A stretch of 37,064 nt of DNA from a virus (Duplodnaviria; Heunggongvirae; Uroviricota; Caudoviricetes): IMG/VR virus record IMGVR_UViG_2778261631_000004. One strand, 5' to 3'. Positions 25,475-37,064 of the stretch are shown piece after piece. The notes below the pieces were generated by a model. It saw only the letters and a program-made list of their open reading frames with translations. It had not been told where the DNA came from and made no database searches. Within the stretch, counting starts at the first letter, position 1; each line of letters opens with the position of its first letter. Made by a program: the position numbers and the translations under genes.

Positions 25475-26539
25475 TTAGCTAATTTCCATTATAATAGAAT
25501 AAGCTCTATTTTCAATTAATTTATTAAATCTATCGGTTTCTCTAGCTGAAAGCTTTTGAGGTTTACTGAAATATTGACCGTTAGACTTATATTTTTTCAC
25601 TCCTTTTACTAAATATGAAAAATTAGTACAGTTTAGTGGATCTCCGAATTGAGCTTCGAGTTCATAAATATCTGGGTCTGCTAGTTTCTCTTTAACCTTC
25701 CATTTTATTTTCCAGATATAAAAGCCTCTATCATAAAGATCACTAAGTTCATCAGATTTAAGAACTCCCTCTCCTTTCAGAGATGCTTTTGACACATGAA
25801 CTCCAGTTTCAGTATTTCCCTCTTCTGCTTCTATTGTTTCAGGTTTTGGATGATATACATAAGCATCAGTAACATCGTCTAATTCATATCCATCTAGGCT
25901 ACGGATTAATTTATCGAAAAACAGTGTCCTAACATCTGCGGAGCTATTATGAGCAAGAGTAATTTCGTTTAATTTTAAATCAAGATTACTGTCATTATCT
26001 TGTTCACTCTGGATCGAAATTATATGCCCGAGGAGGAGATCTTCATAATCTTTGAGATTCTCGTTATCGGGACGACGGATGCTATAACCTTTATCAATAG
26101 GCTCGATTTCAATTAAAGCTTCTTTATTTACAGCCTGCTTAAAATCGCTTTTACTATAATTGGTCGATAGATATCTTATATCTATAAGAACTCGAGAACC
26201 ATCAATAATAATTTTACAATAATCATCCTGAGCAGTTATTTCTTTTTTTAACTTCTCTGCTGCCACTATGATATCGTCCTTAGTGACACTGGATTCAATT
26301 CTTACACATGTATTTTTTTCAGCTCTTGTCTGACCTCCGAGTAATGTTGCTATCTTCTGATGTTCATAATAATCATGAGTCATCCGAGAGTAGTTTCTGG
26401 CTAGATCTTTTCTAGGGGTTTTTTTACAAATAATAGTACCTCTTTCCAAGAAAAGATCTTGTATTTCATTTAATGTAATCTGCTTTTGATTCAAAGCATC
26501 ACATAAAGCCTTATCAGTTACACTATGAATATTTTTCAT
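25475..26539 (-). CDS. Hypothetical protein, cargo gene 2 of 3 (about 354 aa), no recognisable motif
   Basis: A+T-rich ORF; start ATG overlaps the stop of the upstream gene in an ATGA arrangement with a GGGAG Shine-Dalgarno; ORF-track start is 4 codons upstream. Confidence 0.65.
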   Translation of the reverse strand: MKNIHSVTDKALCDALNQKQITLNEIQDLFLERGTIICKKTPRKDLARNYSRMTHDYYEHQKIATLLGGQTRAEKNTCVRIESSVTKDDIIVAAEKLKKEITAQDDYCKIIIDGSRVLIDIRYLSTNYSKSDFKQAVNKEALIEIEPIDKGYSIRRPDNENLKDYEDLLLGHIISIQSEQDNDSNLDLKLNEITLAHNSSADVRTLFFDKLIRSLDGYELDDVTDAYVYHPKPETIEAEEGNTETGVHVSKASLKGEGVLKSDELSDLYDRGFYIWKIKWKVKEKLADPDIYELEAQFGDPLNCTNFSYLVKGVKKYKSNGQYFSKPQKLSARETDRFNKLIENRAYSIIMEIS

Positions 26540-27600
26540 TTCGGCTCCCAAGAAATAACCTCAGAAGAAAAGAATTCTTTTACAGTAGAGACAACTTTGA
26601 CATCCAGATCTTCAAGTCTCTTTTTAGCCTCTTCATCCAGTCCATACTCATGAACATACTTTTCGATCCCACGCTGAAAATGCGACATAACTCTATTATC
26701 TTTCTCACGATACGCCAATCTTATTCTAATTTTATTTATACCATCTAAAATTTGATAATTAGAAAGCAAGTCTAGCAAATAAAAGAATTCATTATCGCTA
26801 TTACCTTTTCTATTGTAATATATAACAAATCCCTCTGGATAAACCATTTCCTCAATACCTTTAGCCCTATTGAATTTATAAACAGGACCATGTTTAATAA
26901 TCATAAATGGTGATAACAAAACTTCAATAGTTGCAGGAAGGTATTTTTCAGTTACAGCAACCTTATGGAAAATAAGTTGAGGATAATAGAATCCATAATC
27001 CTCATCTGGAAATTCTTTTTTTGCAATCAAGTCATTCATATCATTCGTTACTGCCAACATATAATTAATAAGAAATGGATCAATTATATGAATTTGCTGA
27101 CCAGCACATAACGGAATCTTTTCTAAGTTTACAGCCTTATCTCTCCTTCCTTTAGTAGGTTTAGGAGGATTAAAGAAATCATAAAAATCATGTTGCAATT
27201 GATTATCATGATTAAAAACAAATAATAAACCTCGAACTTCGAAATCAATTTGAGAAAAGTTATATTTTTCTGACCATTCCTGGCTATATCGAGCACAATC
27301 AATTGTTTTTGCTAAAGACTCTAATGCAGATTCTATCTTTGTTGCATTAATAGAACCAGCCTTATAACTTTTCAAATCAGTATTTAAATAAATAATTTTA
27401 TTTAAATATGGATCTTTATAACTAAATACCACATCCACTGGGTGTGTGTGCTTTTGTTTTTTACCTTCAGGCTTATGTTTTGTTTCATTATCACAAGAGA
27501 AATCTTGGTCACAGGGGCCATGCTGTTGCCACTTAAAACGACTCATAAGATCGTTAGAAATGCGTTTTGCTAAGTCTTCAATAGGGCCATTCTCTGCCAT
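26536..27600 (-). CDS. Hypothetical protein, cargo gene 1 of 3 (354 aa), no recognisable motif
   Basis: A+T-rich ORF with AAGGA Shine-Dalgarno upstream of the ATG; no Walker A or other signature visible. Confidence 0.65.
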   Translation of the reverse strand: MAENGPIEDLAKRISNDLMSRFKWQQHGPCDQDFSCDNETKHKPEGKKQKHTHPVDVVFSYKDPYLNKIIYLNTDLKSYKAGSINATKIESALESLAKTIDCARYSQEWSEKYNFSQIDFEVRGLLFVFNHDNQLQHDFYDFFNPPKPTKGRRDKAVNLEKIPLCAGQQIHIIDPFLINYMLAVTNDMNDLIAKKEFPDEDYGFYYPQLIFHKVAVTEKYLPATIEVLLSPFMIIKHGPVYKFNRAKGIEEMVYPEGFVIYYNRKGNSDNEFFYLLDLLSNYQILDGINKIRIRLAYREKDNRVMSHFQRGIEKYVHEYGLDEEAKKRLEDLDVKVVSTVKEFFSSEVISWEPK

Positions 27601-27635
27601 TTCATTTCCTTACTTTTGCAGACAAATCTCATTGA

Positions 27636-27665
27636 AAGATAAAGGTAAGCTTTTTGCGTTGCAAG
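27636..27665 (-). promoter_or_regulatory. Candidate sigma-70 promoter of the cargo operon
   Basis: Minus-strand TTGCAA, 17-nt spacer, TATCTT about 40 to 60 nt upstream of the first cargo gene; by-eye match only. Confidence 0.3.
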
Positions 27666-27699
27666 AACTTTGGACTTGATGTGAGAAGCTTAACGCGCG

Positions 27700-27722
27700 C
27701 TCGTATCCCCGCCACGCCTGCC
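27700..27722. other. Candidate cos (cohesive-end) site
   Basis: Minus strand reads GGCGTGGCGGGGA, resembling the G-rich cohesive-end core I recall for P2/186; lies between the Q-side and A-side arms as expected. Confidence 0.45.
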
Positions 27723-27760
27723 CGCTTTATGTAGTGGTTTTCATGCACCTGCATGATCTA

Positions 27761-27787
27761 CGCAAAAGCCCGCCAGAACTGGCGGGC
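27761..27787 (-). terminator. Rho-independent terminator after the lipoprotein gene
   Basis: Stem GCCCGCCAG / CTGGCGGGC with 2-nt loop, followed on the minus strand by TTTTG. Confidence 0.45.
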
Positions 27788-27891
27788 CTTAACACAAAAG
27801 ATCCTCAAACGATCATGCGATCTCATGCAGCATAGACATGCGCGTTTATGCAGAATGTGCAAAATCGTAACATACTCAGTAAGCGTGAAAC

Positions 27892-28569
27892 CTAGAACGT
27901 GACAGCCTTGTCAAAGCCAGAAATAATTGTATAAGAAATAGACGAGTTATCAGCCTTGTTCACTTTGAACTTGGCACCTTTGTAAGCGATAACATCACTT
28001 CCCTTAGAATCTACAGAAAAATCTGTTGTAAATGCTGCACGAGCCATATCGTTTGCAAATTCACGATAGGTGAACTTCATTACACCGCCTGCATTTCCAT
28101 TGTATTCGATAGTCTTAACCAATGAATTACTCACTCGACACAGCCCATCAGGAACACGTTTGATAGAAATTTCTGATGCAGTATAAGAAGTGCCATTTGG
28201 CGGTGATATCTCATTTTTTGCAGCATCGTAACTAACATAATCAACATAGTTACCGATTTGCCCATAGAGATTTTTTAACGCAACAGCTTGAGGGTTATGA
28301 TAATTGCGGTAAATTCCATTCCCCTCACTGCAATATGTACCAGCAGCGATAGAAGACAATGCACCATTAGCCGCACCAAGTTCTAGTACGTCCGTTTTAA
28401 ATCCAGTAGCAGATGTGATAATGGGATCGCCCATGTAGGCGGTAGCACTTTGCCCAATAGCTGGCTTCACCACTTCAATAGCAGTGATATTTCGGTTAGA
28501 AGCATGTGGCACGCAACCAGTTAGGATTACAGCAAGAGATATTGGTAACGCTACATTATTAATTTTCAT
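27892..28569 (-). CDS. Predicted lipoprotein of unknown function (accessory/moron gene)
   Basis: Signal peptide ending in lipobox LTGC (MKINNVALPISLAVILTGC), Gly/Ser/Thr/Asn-rich mature part; start placed at internal Met; own terminator downstream. Confidence 0.65.
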   Translation of the reverse strand: MKINNVALPISLAVILTGCVPHASNRNITAIEVVKPAIGQSATAYMGDPIITSATGFKTDVLELGAANGALSSIAAGTYCSEGNGIYRNYHNPQAVALKNLYGQIGNYVDYVSYDAAKNEISPPNGTSYTASEISIKRVPDGLCRVSNSLVKTIEYNGNAGGVMKFTYREFANDMARAAFTTDFSVDSKGSDVIAYKGAKFKVNKADNSSISYTIISGFDKAVTF

Positions 28570-28682
28570 TTTTAGCCTATTATTCTTTTCTTGACAAAAA
28601 ACAAGGCGATATCTGATTGACATCGCCTCTCACTCATATGTAACCCTTTTTGATTAGTAAAAACAAGCGTCTATTGACAAAA

Positions 28683-28916
28683 TTAATGCAGCCAGCTGTC
28701 GTCTTCCCACACCTTCTGCAAAATTTTCATCACTTGTTTTCTTTCTTCGTCCAGTTGCAGTCCGGTCAGTTCCACACCGTTAGAGCTACCTTTACGGATA
28801 CGGATTACCGTTTTGGGATACAGGGGGCGCAGATTGCGGTAAAGCTCGGATTCAAGGGCGTCCAGGGTAGACTGGCTAATCTTCTGCTCTTTATCGATCA
28901 TTATTTCAATGCGCAT
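28683..28916 (-). CDS. DinI-family protein
   Basis: MRIEIMIDKEQ...LDALESEL...ILQKVWEDDSW closely parallels E. coli DinI; own GAGGTGA Shine-Dalgarno; ORF-track start is upstream of the likely Met. Confidence 0.8.
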   Translation of the reverse strand: MRIEIMIDKEQKISQSTLDALESELYRNLRPLYPKTVIRIRKGSSNGVELTGLQLDEERKQVMKILQKVWEDDSWLH

Positions 28917-28926
28917 AAAAGTCACC

Positions 28927-29114
28927 TCAACTGATGACATCCATTGAGCGGTTGTATTCGTGGGTTCTGATTTTTGCCATGAGTTCATCAGTCAATTCAG
29001 AAACCCACTGCAGAGCCAGCCCCTTCTCTTCATCACTACACTCACTAGCCGCTACAAGCTTAAGAAAAAAATCAATGCGCTGGAGCTTCAAAGACTCCAA
29101 AAAATAGTCCTGCA
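28927..29114 (-). CDS. Small protein (62 aa) co-transcribed with the DinI-like gene; possible Tum-like antirepressor component
   Basis: ATG preceded by GGAGGAAAG; the ORF-track N-terminal extension would overlap the LexA box, so the shorter start is preferred. Confidence 0.5.
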
Positions 29115-29157
29115 TCTTTCCTCCTATGACACCACAAGCAATACTGTATGCATAAAC

Positions 29158-29173
29158 ACTGTTTATATTTACA
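29158..29173. promoter_or_regulatory. LexA box (SOS operator)
   Basis: CTGTTTATATTTACAG, perfect CTGT-N8-ACAG, overlapping a TATAAT-like element; a second near-consensus box CTGTATGCATAAACAC lies immediately adjacent (29142..29157). Confidence 0.7.
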
Positions 29174-29268
29174 GTATATAATAATCTTACTGATGTAAAA
29201 CGTTTTTTTACGTTCATCAGCCTGATATGCCTGGTATTATTAAGAGCACGAATTGTTAACCCGCGTAA

Positions 29269-31710
29269 TTAATACAGGTTCCGCCACTTATCATCTTCCT
29301 GCAAACGCTGGTTCCGATAGAAGATACGCAGGCCTGCTCCTGACGGAATACTGCCACCGCGAAGGAGCAAATCGACCTCTTTCTCGCTGCCATCAAATCC
29401 TCTGGACTTCAGTTCATAGACGAGCTGCTGACGCTGATGCTCTGTAATTCGCTGTTTGTAGTCTTTACGCCGTTTCGGTTTAACCAGGCGTAATCTTGCT
29501 GCCAGTTCCCGGCGCTCTTTTTTGCTCATATTGTGCAGGTAATCGTGCAATTCCTTGTCATCCATGCAGGTAATATCAGTTCTGGTATCCCCATCTGCTG
29601 ATTTATCTTTCTCCTGTTGGTTCAAATTTTCAGCAAGGGGACAGTTATTGCCACGAGTCCAAGGGGCGCAAGCGCCCTGGTCGGCTGCCGCCTCCTGAAT
29701 GTCAACGGCCTTACGAACCATTTTCCACTTCACCGCATGAGTGCAGATCTTGCCCTCTGCAATGGGTGACCAGATGCCATAAATACGAATACCGTGATCG
29801 CCATAGGCGGTCGGCTCTTCGTTGATTTCATAAGCGGTTCTGATGAGGTGATATTTGCGGGGAACCAGTACGCCGCCCTGCTTCATGATGTAGGTGGCAA
29901 AACAGCCAGCATCAGCGGCAGCCAGGATGGCATCAAGGCGCGGGTTATCCAGTACCGGCGCACCTGCTTTTTTGTCCCCCTGTTGCCTTGCCGCCTGACC
30001 AGCCAGCAATCGCAGTTCACGGTAAGCCTGACGCCCCGGAATGCCAAAGAAGCGGAATTGCTGAACACGATGCAGAGACGCCCAGGCATTAACGTATTCG
30101 GCGTTATCACGCAGGGATTTACCCGTTTCCTTGCTGATCTCGCCAGCCAGACCACGCCCGTCAATGTTCTTACTGATGTATTTCGCGATGTAGCTTGTTG
30201 GCGTACCTTTGCGCGGGTTTATCAGCTCAGACTTAAAGCGTGGTTCCGTGTTATTACCCAGCTCCTCGCGGTCTTCACGAATGGCAAACTTACGCAACAA
30301 AGCAGTAATGGCGCGGCGATCTTTTTTGCGCATAAAACACAACAGGTGCCAGTGAACTGTACCGTCATGATGCGGCTCAGCCACCCGCACGCCATACCAG
30401 CGTAATCCGGCTTTGTGCATCGCCTTACGAAATGCAGCAAACATACCGACCAGATAATCACTGCTTTGTCTTACCGTCGCATTTGTCCAGGTCGGGTTGG
30501 GCCTGCCGTTATTTAGCGTGGAATGGAAACGTGACGGACAGGTGATGGTGTAGAAAACGGCGCAGTCACCACGCATTTCCGCGATAAGCTCCAGACCTTT
30601 AACACAGGCCATCATCTCATTGCGGCGATGCGCAGGGTTGCTGCTGCTGGCGTTTACCACGTCTTCCATATCCAGCGTGTCGCCGTCTTCGTTCACCAGT
30701 TCATGAGAACGGAAAAACTCCAGCGACTTACGGCGCTGCTCACGTTTATGCATCACGGCTTCATAGCTGACATAGGGAGATGCTTTTTTGCTGACCAGGC
30801 AAACAGCACGCAACTGCTCTTCCCGCCATTCGCAACGCATCTTCCATAATTTCCGATACCACCAGTCGGCGCATAACATACGCGCCAGCGAACCCGGAAT
30901 GAGTTCATAAGGCACGGGTTTACGGCGGTTTCTTTTCCGACGGAGTTGCTCAAACGCAGGCGGGATAACATCCAGACGCAGGGTTTCCGCTGCCACCTTT
31001 TCCCATGTCTTGCGGATTTCTTCTGGCGTAACATCATCGGTGGCATACAAATCGCCACAAGCTGTATCAAGGCACATGCTCATATGCGCAGCTACCAAGG
31101 TGGACAGGCGTTTCACCTGATCCTGACTCATTTCAGGCAGGATCAGCAGGCCGTCCAGCCCTTCATGGCTTGCCATAAAGCGAAAAGAAGTGGATAGCTG
31201 ACTGTCGCGTACATGCTCCAGTCGTTCCAAGCATGGCTTAATCGTCTCACGCAAATAGCGGGAATAAGCCTTTGGCCTGCCCAGGCTGCTGAAGTATTTA
31301 ATACGTTGCATCAGCGGCTTGCTGATATGGGAAGGCTGGGCGTTGACGTCCGCCAGAATGGCCATGTCTGGATTAAAACGCTGCTGCTCATGCGCCAGCT
31401 TTGCCCGGCTAATTAGCTTATCCTGCTCCATTTCGCGTTGGACAGGATCACGGGATTCATTAAAGAAATAACGCTCCCAGACCTGATCACTCAGTGCCTC
31501 GCGGCGCAGTTGTTCCTGCTCGTTATCGGCAGCGTACAGAGTGATCAGGTTTGAAAGCGCAGAAACCGGCGCAACTTCCGCCGGGTCCAGATAAGGGTTA
31601 ATGGCCTTTTTCGGGCTGTTCCATGAGAATGCTGCGGCGACCTCGTTAAAGCCGCTGCAGTTGTTCATATCAGCATGGCTCATGCACGCACTCCGTACAC
31701 GACGGAACAA
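29269..31710 (-). CDS. A: Replication initiation protein A (rolling-circle nickase)
   Basis: About 800-aa ORF in the early operon position of P2/186 gene A; true start may be an internal Met a few codons in. Confidence 0.85.
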
Positions 31711-34959: not shown

Positions 34960-35616
34960 GTGAAGGCTCCAAAAGAACACTTCTGGTTCAACTTTAAGAT
35001 CGCTTTTGGAATCTGTCAACGAATTTTGGATTTCTTTGGAGGACTTGTGGATTTCAATAGCGGCGGTAAGAAAGCCATAGAACGTTTAGTTGAAGCATAT
35101 GGGTTCGGTACTCGTCAGGCTCTCTGTGATCATTTAGGTGTTTCTAAGAGCACCATGGCAACGCGCTATATGCGTGATATTTTTCCAGCAGATTGGGTAA
35201 TCCAGTGCGCCCTTGAAACGGGCACCTCGCTTAATTGGCTAACAACAGGGCATGGTTCAAAGCAAGCATCAGCAAATACAAATACTATAGAAGTAGAAAA
35301 ATATTTATTGTCTGATGGAGCATTGCAGAAAGACGGTTTTTATATTTTTGATAAGGGATTTCTACCCTCTACGTTTAAAAAACCTTTTGTCATCACAGAT
35401 AACAATTCTGAATTTATTTGTGATAAAGAATTTGATGATATACGTGATGGTAAATGGGTAATAAGTATTGATGGCGAAATAACGATCCGTGACATTACTC
35501 GTTTACCCGGTGGAAGAATCTTCGTCGAGGGTGGAAACAGAGCCTTCGAATGCAAGATAGAAGACATTGAAATAATTGGTAAAATTATAAGTTTGACAGT
35601 CAAGTATGTTAAATAG
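34960..35616 (+). CDS. cI: CI-type immunity repressor (186 CI-like)
   Basis: N-terminal domain EAYGF...CALETG.SLNWL.TG as in 186 CI. ORF track starts at GTG 34960; a GTG at about 35047 preceded by GGAGGA is an alternative start giving a 189-aa product. Confidence 0.75.
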   Translation: MKAPKEHFWFNFKIAFGICQRILDFFGGLVDFNSGGKKAIERLVEAYGFGTRQALCDHLGVSKSTMATRYMRDIFPADWVIQCALETGTSLNWLTTGHGSKQASANTNTIEVEKYLLSDGALQKDGFYIFDKGFLPSTFKKPFVITDNNSEFICDKEFDDIRDGKWVISIDGEITIRDITRLPGGRIFVEGGNRAFECKIEDIEIIGKIISLTVKYVK

Positions 35617-35631
35617 TACCGGGAGGAAACT

Positions 35632-35823
35632 ATGCTTGGTAAGGTATTTTTTGTGGTTTTGTCATGTTCTTTGTTATTAAACCCACTAACTACCTATGCT
35701 AGAAATTATCCCTGCTCAGGGAAAAAGGGAGGTGTTTCTCACTGTACCTCAGATGGCAAATTCGTTTGCAATGATGGAACTATTAGTAAATCCAAAAAAA
35801 TCTGTACTAAAAACTCACGATAA
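35632..35823 (+). CDS. Small secreted cysteine-rich protein (63 aa) of unknown function
   Basis: N-terminal signal-peptide-like segment then 4 to 5 Cys in a Lys/Gly-rich about 40-aa mature part; A+T-rich; between cI and int. Confidence 0.45.
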
Positions 35824-36011
35824 CTTTTGTTTTTATATCTGCGTCTAAAATAAAAATGAGCCGCAGGTTAACCGCAAAAGTTACATGCTCACATAGCAAA
35901 AAGAATAGCCAACTTCATTATGGCTTCAGTGAGATGTATGGTCGTAGGATTTCATACATTGACACTGGTTATACATACAGTAAAAATGCTCTCTACTGGA
36001 GGGCATTTTTT

Positions 36012-37064
36012 ATGGCAGTACGAAAACTCACCACAGGGAAATGGCTTTGCGAATGTTACCCCGCCGGACGAAGTGGGCGTCGTGTGCGTAAACAATTCGC
36101 CACCAAAGGCGAAGCTCTGGCTTTTGAGCGCCACACGATGGAAGAAACCGAATCAAAGCCCTGGCTGGGCGAATCAGTGGATCGTCGAACCCTGAAAGAC
36201 GTGGTTGAGCTATGGTTCAAACTACATGGTAAATCTCTGACTGCTGGACAGCATGTCTATGACAAATTGCTGCTGATGGTTGACGCTCTAGGCAATCCTC
36301 TTGCAACCGATCTCACCTCTAAAATGTTTGCCCACTATCGAGATAAACGCCTGACAGGCGAGATCTACTTCAGCGAGAAATGGAAGAAAGGAGCAAGCCC
36401 GGTCACCATTAACCTGGAGCAAAGCTATCTAAGTAGTGTTTTTAGCGAACTATCCCGTCTGGGCGAATGGTCGTATCCGAACCCACTGGAGAACATGCGA
36501 AAATTCACCATCGCAGAAAAAGAGATGGCATGGCTTACCCATGAGCAGATTGTTGAATTGCTGGCTGATTGCAAACGTCAGGACCCAATTCTGGCACTGG
36601 TAGTTAAGATATGCTTAAGCACAGGCGCACGCTGGCGTGAAGCCGTAAATCTTACCCGCTCACAGGTGACCAAATACCGAATTACCTTTGTCAGAACGAA
36701 GGGGAAGAAAAACAGAAGCATCCCTATCAGTAAAGAGCTTTACGAAGAGATCATGGCGCTTGATGGGTTCAATTTCTTCACAGACTGCTATTTTCAATTT
36801 TTATCCGTGATGGAAAAAACGTCTATCGTGCTCCCTCGCGGTCAACTCACACACGTTCTGCGCCATACGTTTGCGGCGCACTTCATGATGTCGGGTGGAA
36901 ACATTCTGGCCTTACAAAAAATTCTCGGACACCACGATATAAAAATGACTATGCGTTACGCACATCTGGCACCGGATCATCTGGAAACGGCGCTCCGTTT
37001 CAATCCTCTGGCAACGCTGCCAAGTGGCGACAAAGTGGCGGCAGCGGTTGGCATTACCCCGTAA
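36012..37064 (+). CDS. int: Tyrosine integrase (P2/186 family)
   Basis: Start placed at MAVRKLTTGKW; C-terminal catalytic region HVLRHTFA ... LGHHDIKMTMRYAHL; ends exactly at the window edge. Confidence 0.9.
   Translation: MAVRKLTTGKWLCECYPAGRSGRRVRKQFATKGEALAFERHTMEETESKPWLGESVDRRTLKDVVELWFKLHGKSLTAGQHVYDKLLLMVDALGNPLATDLTSKMFAHYRDKRLTGEIYFSEKWKKGASPVTINLEQSYLSSVFSELSRLGEWSYPNPLENMRKFTIAEKEMAWLTHEQIVELLADCKRQDPILALVVKICLSTGARWREAVNLTRSQVTKYRITFVRTKGKKNRSIPISKELYEEIMALDGFNFFTDCYFQFLSVMEKTSIVLPRGQLTHVLRHTFAAHFMMSGGNILALQKILGHHDIKMTMRYAHLAPDHLETALRFNPLATLPSGDKVAAAVGITP

Follow-up and report, generated by a model that had tools for sequence, protein, structure and literature searches.

A split tum SOS operon, predicted to drive antirepressor-mediated induction, in a P2/186-like prophage of the Fels-2/DuoHS type

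Organization of the locus

The DNA analyzed here is a stretch of 37,064 nucleotides from a virus of the Caudoviricetes (IMG/VR record IMGVR_UViG_2778261631_000004), to which we refer in its entirety as the window. Directly after a replication gene A of the P2 gpA type lies a compact module on the minus strand, in the position occupied by tum in phage 186 and by tumA and tumB in PSP3. Two small open reading frames (ORF1 and ORF2) stand behind a putative promoter that is overlapped by LexA-like sequences, and they are followed by a terminator and a gene for a predicted lipoprotein. Over 701 nt, identity is 97.6% to Salmonella phage Fels-2 and 98% to many P2-like phages of Klebsiella and Escherichia. 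The elements of the module, in the direction of transcription, are:

29194..29199, minus strand: putative -35 hexamer TTTACA, read from the sequence, 17 nt from the -10 hexamer
29171..29176, minus strand: putative -10 hexamer TACTGT, coinciding with the first six bases of LexA box 1 in its 20-nt form
29157..29176, no strand assigned: LexA box 1, 20-mer TACTGTAAATATAAACAGTG, with its CTGT-N8-ACAG core at 29159..29174
29142..29161, no strand assigned: LexA box 2, 20-mer CAGTGTTTATGCATACAGTA, with a GTGT-N8-ACAG core at 29144..29159
29120..29125, minus strand: Shine-Dalgarno sequence AGGAGG of tumA, invariant in relatives
28927..29115, minus strand: tumA (ORF1), 62 aa, predicted from homology to be an antirepressor acting on the prophage CI
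28683..28916, minus strand: tumB (ORF2), 77 aa, DinI family, matching Pfam DinI and the C-terminal part of Tum
28594..28629, minus strand: intrinsic terminator after tumB, with an 11-bp stem and then a T run (z -2.97)
27892..28569, minus strand: predicted lipoprotein gene, 225 aa, with an LTGC lipobox, which may belong to the SOS operon as a distal member

An exact LexA box, a second near-consensus box next to it, and a 62-aa ORF followed 10 nt later by a DinI-family gene had been described in the original prediction, and all are present. ORF1 begins with the ATG at 29115 and extends to 28927, and ORF2 runs from 28916 to 28683. The exact box had been placed at 29158..29173, one base away from its true core at 29159..29174. 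The core of the second box, at 29144..29159, has one mismatch and overlaps that of the first by a single base.

The LexA operator and the tum promoter

On the minus strand the core of box 1 reads CTGTAAATATAAACAG (29174..29159), and that of box 2 reads GTGTTTATGCATACAG (29159..29144). An exact 16-mer of the form CTGT-N8-ACAG is by itself weak evidence for a LexA site, with 0.36 occurrences expected per window and at least one found in 30 of 100 shuffles. Extending the comparison to 20 nt is more discriminating. The 20-mer of box 1 differs from the consensus TACTGTATATATATACAGTA at no more than three positions, a match reached in none of the 100 shuffles, and the window as a whole contains four sites with five or fewer mismatches to the 20-nt consensus where 0.04 would be expected from a first-order Markov model. 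The third of these, an AT-rich sequence at 26868..26887 with five mismatches, is probably fortuitous.

Box 2 has five mismatches to the 20-nt consensus. Its left half is defective, being GTGT here and GTGG in most relatives. Cores with a single mismatch are common by chance (16 observed in the window, 13 expected), and for this reason box 2 rests on its context and not on its score.

We compared this region among 71 distinct relatives. The segment from the -35 hexamer through box 1 is nearly invariant. Within box 2 the ends (GTG and ACAG) are kept while two central bases vary, and a few positions in the leader vary also. Retention of the ends together with a variable center is the pattern that would be expected of a site that binds a dimer. 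We considered the hypervariable patch within box 2 as a separate feature, and rejected it; the variation is about 3-fold above the local mean, and is located at the non-contacted center of the box. We treat it as probable relaxed constraint. A double box of this kind would be expected to confer tight, cooperative repression and a high threshold for induction.

The tum promoter was not called by a consensus promoter scanner, because its -10 hexamer falls under the threshold of that program. A plus-strand candidate, TAAACA-18-TATAAT at 29153..29182, was rejected, since it is explained by the AT-rich palindrome and is directed into the end of gene A.

tumB encodes a homolog of DinI

ORF2 is preceded by its own ribosome-binding site, GAGGTGA. 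Residues 14-76 of its product match the Pfam DinI family (PF06183) with an E value of 4.6e-23 and a score of 81.8 bits against a cut-off of 24.2 bits. The match extends over the full length of the domain and takes in the acidic motif of the C-terminal helix. The protein aligns with residues 71-145 of 186 Tum at 43% identity (E 1e-24), with the alignment beginning at the very residue annotated as the internal start of Tum95.5, a truncated product, and it aligns end to end over residues 1-75 with Escherichia coli DinI (PDB 1GHH). On the NCBIfam equivalog it scores 44 bits, under the 111-bit cut-off, and we therefore regard it as a paralog and not as the host DinI. It is 98.7% identical to Fels-2 STM2726.1, a member of the DinI family whose annotation cites PSP3 TumB, and is approximately 35% identical to the DinI of Gifsy-2.

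tumA is distantly related to the N-terminal region of Tum

The product of ORF1 is 98.4% identical to Fels-2 STM2728. It is also identical at 61 of 62 residues to the protein called 'tum' (ECHS_RS04495) of the prophage DuoHS in E. coli HS, which lies behind the same promoter and box 1. ECHS_RS04495 is a 62-aa 'hypothetical protein' encoded just upstream of the DinI-like ECHS_RS04500. ORF1 has no family in Pfam or NCBIfam; elsewhere it is labeled as hypothetical in RefSeq E. coli genomes, and as 'levan regulatory protein' in some phage records.

The relationship of ORF1 to Tum emerges from profile methods. The original prediction had proposed aligning both ORFs to Tum and DinI. For ORF2 this succeeds; for ORF1, BLASTP gives no similarity to either 186 Tum or PSP3 TumA, and the link is made by profiles only. 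ORF1 matches phrog_698 (3.6e-38), and also phrog_8554 (2.4e-8) and phrog_1993 (2e-3), the last of which is defined by PSP3 TumA. Reciprocally, residues 1-70 of 186 Tum match phrog_1993, phrog_8554 and phrog_698 (5.9e-6). When an alignment of 28 diverse relatives of ORF1 was compared with 186 Tum by hhalign, the match covered residues 3-44 of both with a probability of 94.9% and an E value of 4.5e-8. Identity over this segment is approximately 19%, and the ORF1 family and Tum have in common the motif C-x(6-7)-(L/I)AL-x2-(I/V)-x-E. With PSP3 TumA on its own, the profile match is weak. Taken together, these comparisons indicate that ORF1 is a distant homolog of the N-terminal region of Tum. AlphaFold2 predicts that TumA forms a two-helix hairpin of long helices (residues 2-23 and 28-61) with a pLDDT of 88.

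The module is divided into two genes

ORF1 and ORF2 are separated by a gap of 10 nt, lie in different frames, and each have a ribosome-binding site of their own. The locus thus belongs to the split tumA/tumB form, and does not encode the single Tum polypeptide of approximately 146 aa. The division into two ORFs had been singled out as noteworthy in the original prediction, but it was known before: PMC3121763, citing Bunny et al. 2002, reports it in Fels-2 and PSP3, and the PSP3 genes carry the annotation tumA/tumB. Searching the literature for these two gene names found nothing relevant.

Such a division could in principle arise by decay, the two ORFs being the remains of a recently frameshifted single tum of the 186 type in a prophage that is no longer SOS-inducible. 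The reading frame of ORF2 is open upstream to 28988, and the effect of a single-nucleotide frameshift, which the original prediction had suggested examining, lends this some plausibility: deletion of one base at 64 of the tested positions across 28993..28927 generates a fusion of 143 aa, close to the 146 aa of Tum, whereas no one-base insertion fuses the two. Against this, the ribosome-binding site of each ORF is strong, and the split form is conserved at approximately 98% identity in Fels-2, DuoHS, many Klebsiella phages and E. coli, where 1125 of the 5426 complete genomes carry it; overall, it recurs in thousands of genomes. All of the 120 close homologs of ORF1 that were listed are small proteins (55-109 aa) without a fusion to DinI. 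When 1.84 billion representative proteins were searched, the ORF1 family comprised 66 representative clusters; ORF1 did not match the N-terminal end of a protein the size of Tum in any of them, and none contained a relative that looks fused to DinI. Moreover an identity to Tum of approximately 19% is too low for a recent event, and DuoHS, a prophage of the same arrangement, is inducible according to the 2025 Phollow paper (PMC12055606). We consider decay to be extremely unlikely. Judged from these comparisons, the split is neither an error nor a gene in decay.

We looked also for a structural basis for translational coupling of the two genes. A small hairpin spanning the stop codon of ORF1 and the ribosome-binding site of ORF2 had a z of -1.26, no better than shuffled sequences, and the idea was dropped. 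No RNA family was found in Rfam for 27500..29400.

The downstream lipoprotein gene

Beyond the terminator, the predicted lipoprotein is 100% identical to ECHS_RS25360 of E. coli HS and 98.8% identical to Fels-2 STM2726. It has no match in Pfam or PADLOC. In a microarray study, STM2726-STM2727-STM2728 are listed as a single operon with differential expression after treatment with mutagen (PMC2225428). The locus is not covered in a paper on the Salmonella SOS regulon (PMC8072944).

The CI repressor and its pairing with TumA

The predicted target of TumA is the immunity repressor, encoded elsewhere in the window:

35047..35616, plus strand: cI, immunity repressor of the 186 type (Pfam), predicted target of TumA

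CI matches the two families to which 186 CI belongs, Phage_CI_repr (2.5e-31) and Phage_CI_C (3.4e-29). Its score for the self-cleavage domain Peptidase_S24 is not significant (16.7 bits against a cut-off of 23.3 bits), and this domain content points to a repressor that would not undergo RecA-dependent self-cleavage. Induction driven by an antirepressor, rather than by self-cleavage, fits a CI of the 186 type in which S24 lies below the cut-off. The CI and CII proteins had been assigned to the 186 type, and this is borne out: identity to the 186 proteins is 33% for CI (E 7e-37) and 69% for CII, with 56% for Int. The CI of the window is 87% identical to that of DuoHS.

These data bear on the idea that the module is a cargo that modulates the SOS response, comprising a DinI homolog and an unrelated small protein, with the prophage itself induced through CI self-cleavage or by some other route. 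DinI homologs are indeed common prophage cargo, as in the Gifsy phages, and the absence of a Pfam or NCBIfam family for ORF1, its lack of BLASTP similarity to Tum and its label 'levan regulatory protein' in some databases could be taken in the same sense. Yet CI is below the S24 threshold and falls in the 186 CI families, and ORF1 has profile homology to the N-terminus of Tum. Furthermore, the Phollow paper reports that deletion in DuoHS of 'tum' ECHS_RS04495, the gene identical to ORF1 at 61 of 62 residues, abolishes lysis induced by mitomycin C, and that the same loss results from lexA(Ind-), which encodes a non-cleavable LexA (PMC12055606). A role purely as cargo thus seems to us very unlikely, and we retain TumA as the probable antirepressor.

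If TumA acts on CI, the distribution of sequence variation in CI may indicate where. We examined 71 prophage loci in IMG/VR in which TumA is identical to ORF1 at all 62 residues. The CI proteins of these loci range from 38% to 100% identity with that of the window. The N-terminal helix-turn-helix domain (residues 8-72) retains 68-88% identity, and the C-terminal domain is only 25-46% identical in most of the loci. Among phages whose TumA or Tum has diverged, the identity of the N-terminal domain is lower still. Values for individual phages, compared with the window, are:

SopEPhi: TumA 89% identical to ORF1; CI N-terminal domain 71%; CI C-terminal domain 28%
ESSI2_ev129: TumA 49% identical to ORF1; CI N-terminal domain 68%; CI C-terminal domain 34%
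ESSI-2: TumA 41% identical to ORF1; CI N-terminal domain 58%; CI C-terminal domain 24%
PSP3: TumA with no BLASTP match to ORF1; CI N-terminal domain 48%; CI C-terminal domain 29%
186: no BLASTP match to ORF1; CI N-terminal domain 39%; CI C-terminal domain 30%

This suggests that TumA may target the N-terminal domain of CI, which we put forward as a lead and not as a result. The pattern would also fit with simple co-descent of neighboring modules.

A second LexA-like site upstream of int

A further LexA-like sequence is found upstream of the integrase gene:

35959..35987, plus strand: promoter-like TTGACA-17-AAAAAT, ending approximately 25 nt before the ATG of int (36012), assigned with lower confidence
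35963..35982: LexA-like box CACTGGTTATACATACAGTA, within the spacer of TTGACA-17-AAAAAT, with four mismatches to the 20-nt consensus, likewise assigned with lower confidence

Sites with no more than four mismatches to the LexA consensus number two in the window, against 0.003 expected. The box upstream of int is present in DuoHS, and in at least 48 related loci belonging to three divergent families of flanking sequence the CTGG-N8-ACAG ends are kept and the center is variable. In BLAST comparisons, the resemblance between the int module and other phages starts approximately 5 nt upstream of the -35 hexamer; 15 records are involved, and Fels-2 is not among them.

Directly before the int ATG there is a hairpin followed by a U run. 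It contains the ribosome-binding site GGAGGG, and is conserved in two sequence families. The putative start of the int transcript lies near 35993..35995, at the end of the 5' arm of the hairpin, and a transcript induced by SOS would for that reason be unable to form the hairpin. We hypothesize that transcription reading through from cI would terminate here, with the int ribosome-binding site hidden, and that the SOS-induced transcript would express Int. If the LexA box is functional, Int would be made only after SOS.

One could go further, and propose an SOS wiring richer than in the 186 model, in which a double box, a TumA that targets the N-terminal domain and an SOS-gated int promoter are combined. 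We offer this tentatively; as a whole, the scheme is rather unlikely to be correct.

A model for induction of the prophage

The locus is very probably the SOS operon of a P2/186-like prophage of the Fels-2/DuoHS type, in the split tumA-tumB form, with induction by an antirepressor under the control of LexA. The module itself is already known, the split Tum (tumA-tumB) SOS operon having been documented for prophages of the Fels-2/DuoHS type. The analysis shows the anatomy of the sequence, its homologies and its near-identity to prophages that have been studied experimentally; we infer occupancy of both boxes by LexA, contact of TumA with this CI, and the role of TumB.

In the undamaged lysogen LexA would be bound to both boxes, with box 1 covering the -10 hexamer and box 2 the start of transcription, and the promoter would be shut. 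On DNA damage, activated RecA would lead to self-cleavage of LexA, whereupon the tum promoter should fire and both TumA and TumB be made. TumA, a predicted helical hairpin of 62 aa and homolog of the Tum N-terminus, would then bind the 186-type CI and free the lytic promoter, and the prophage would enter the lytic cycle without cleavage of CI. TumB, as a DinI homolog and the counterpart of the C-terminal half of Tum, would not be the inducer, and probably modulates the activity of the RecA filament. The original prediction had proposed that the prophage follows the induction logic of 186, and this is supported by the LexA box on the -10 hexamer, the position after gene A, the homologies with Tum and the 186-type CI. 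The genetics of the near-identical DuoHS (PMC12055606) are in agreement.

The roles of the two proteins might be exchanged, such that induction is due to the DinI-like TumB, by way of RecA, with TumA in an accessory role. Clear conservation of Tum sequence across 186, PSP3 and the window is confined to the DinI-like half, which would favor this assignment. However, in the 186 record the truncated, DinI-like forms of Tum are annotated as modulating SOS induction, and inhibition of DNA binding by CI is ascribed to full-length Tum only. In PSP3 the antirepressor activity has been assigned to the upstream gene (PMC3121763, second-hand, as a personal communication from G. E. Christie). The deletion reported for DuoHS (PMC12055606) likewise removed the upstream ECHS_RS04495 and not ECHS_RS04500, although a polar effect on tumB is possible. 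We find induction by TumB exceedingly improbable, and favor TumA as the antirepressor.

The mechanism is an established one, and the finding itself brings no new biology. Its importance lies in the prevalence of the module, which sets the timing of host killing and spread for a very common family of P2/186-like prophages, being found in roughly one in five complete E. coli genomes as well as in Salmonella and Klebsiella. Naming the 62-aa 'hypothetical protein' TumA corrects a widespread gap in annotation. The double operator, the shared TumA allele and the candidate int promoter provide leads on the induction threshold, cross-induction and the coupling of excision to SOS, respectively. The double SOS box, if real, would make for an induction threshold that is high and reached late, and a TumA that targets the N-terminal domain could cross-induce co-resident relatives that have a different CI.

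Comparison with known systems

According to Lemire et al. (2011, PMC3121763), the Tum of phage 186 combines an antirepressor with a DinI-like half as a fusion, and its inhibition of CI has been shown biochemically (cited in PMC3121763). The p95 promoter of 186 is TTCACA-18-TACTGT with the LexA site starting from the -10 hexamer, and the window has the same geometry, with TTTACA-17-TACTGT. The terminator of the window is in the position of t95a, the partial terminator after tum, and in both the 186 operon (p95-tum-t95a-orf97) and the window the terminator is followed by a further gene. The CI of 186 is inactivated by binding and not by cleavage, and that of the window is of the same type. There are also differences. 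Phage 186 has one Tum of 146 aa together with DinI-like products from internal starts where the window has two genes in different frames, and it has a single LexA box where the window has two that overlap. The lipoprotein gene is unrelated to orf97, the 186 gene in the same position, and its product has no similarity to Orf97.

PSP3 resembles the window in that the antirepressor gene precedes the DinI-like gene, and its TumB is 77% identical to the product of ORF2. Its tumA and tumB share a frame, with TAA and one codon between them, whereas in the window the gap of 10 nt shifts the frame. PSP3 TumA is a member of a different family (phrog_1993) and is only marginally related to ORF1, and PSP3 has a single LexA box rather than two.

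The locus in Fels-2 and DuoHS is essentially that of the window, with an identical promoter and box 1 and the same lipoprotein gene downstream. Box 2 begins GTGG in these prophages and GTGT in the window, which is one step nearer the consensus. In Fels-2 the cargo beyond the lipoprotein gene differs.

The Gifsy-1 and Gifsy-2 prophages of Salmonella have the gfoA and gftA operons, in which a DinI homolog and a small antirepressor that acts on a non-cleavable repressor are repressed by LexA (PMC3121763). Here dinI comes first, reversing the order in the window; the phages are lambdoid, and the repressor and antirepressor are of other families.

The closest counterparts of the operator are found in colicin operons. 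Using the Fels-2 version of the operator (59 nt) as query, we obtained matches in more than 1100 plasmid records. Two plasmid matches were inspected, and these lie approximately 40 nt upstream of the genes for colicin N and for a colicin of the E1 family. The sequences are:

Window: TACTGTAAATATAAACAGTGTTTATGCATACAGTAT
Fels-2: TACTGTAAATATAAACAGTGGTTATATGTACAGTAT
Colicin N: TACTGTATATAAAACCAGTGGTTATATGTACAGTGC

Like the window, the operators of the colicin N and colicin E1-family genes comprise two SOS boxes that overlap by one base. The Fels-2 and colicin N operators differ at five positions over 38 nt, and their box 2, GTGGTTATATGTACAG, is identical. The tum operator thus appears to be close to the colicin-type double SOS box in both arrangement and sequence. 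Colicin operators have been reported to bind two LexA dimers, preventing untimely lethal expression (PMC2994835). In the colicin operons it is a bacteriocin that is driven from the double box, while in the window it is a prophage antirepressor, and outside the operator there is no relationship in the -35 region or the leader.

Pairing of TumA with the CI repressor

Among the prophages that carry a TumA identical to ORF1, the 62-aa predicted antirepressor of the tum operon, the N-terminal domains of the CI repressors are 68-88% identical (window 35047..35616, and loci L089-L168 of the IMG/VR prophage set), and in most of these prophages the C-terminal domains of CI are only 25-46% identical. 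As judged from these sequence comparisons, the CI C-terminal domain is freely exchanged, with TumA and the CI N-terminal domain staying together.

A group II intron in the tum operator of one relative

In one relative (locus L089, IMGVR_UViG_2634166506_000002) a group II intron is inserted within the tum operator, at L089 8046..9960. The intron, in the sense orientation, has SOS box 1 directly on one side and the right half of box 2 directly on the other. It scores 186.6 bits against Rfam RF02005 and carries a reverse-transcriptase ORF of 495 aa.

The region between cI and int

Two features lie between cI and int:
35632..35823, plus strand, 63-aa ORF
35963..35982, plus strand, LexA-like box CACTGGTTATACATACAGTA, with four mismatches to the LexA consensus

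The start of the 63-aa ORF is signal-peptide-like, and the protein has several cysteines; it has no match in Pfam. E. coli HS has an equally long gene, ECHS_RS23290, annotated there for a hypothetical protein.

The LexA-like box lies between the two hexamers of TTGACA-17-AAAAAT, a promoter-like sequence just 5' of int (element 35959..36014, plus strand). Downstream of this sequence is a hairpin with a U-run, and the ribosome-binding site of int lies inside the hairpin. In at least 48 related loci, as also in the DuoHS prophage of E. coli HS, the ends of the box are kept and its center is variable. Possibly the element is a promoter of int under SOS control, through which transcription avoids a terminator.

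Genes downstream of the tum operon

Three features are found beyond tumB, the DinI-family gene of the operon:
27892..28569, minus strand, 225-aa predicted lipoprotein with lipobox LTGC, directly past the tumB terminator
26536..27600, minus strand, 354-aa ORF of the cargo segment that separates the tum operon from the portal gene
26868..26887, fourth site with five or fewer mismatches to the 20-nt LexA consensus, TATTGAATTTATAAACAGGA, within the AT-rich 354-aa ORF

The lipoprotein gene may be transcribed by read-through as a member of the SOS operon. The protein has no match in Pfam or PADLOC. Its gene takes the position of orf97 in phage 186, with no detectable similarity to orf97.

The 354-aa ORF matches the PADLOC candidate-defence model Hp1 (PDLC03004) with an E value of 1.2e-64, and a Pfam search gave no match. 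A different gene stands at this position in Fels-2. The LexA-like site inside the ORF is probably fortuitous, because its right half-site is poor.

Comparison with the PSP3 repressor

The CI repressor of the related phage PSP3 is a protein of 286 aa (L174 19..879; NC_005340.1 23218..24078). Its N-terminal helix-turn-helix domain is present in two tandem copies, unlike the CI of 186 and that of the window.
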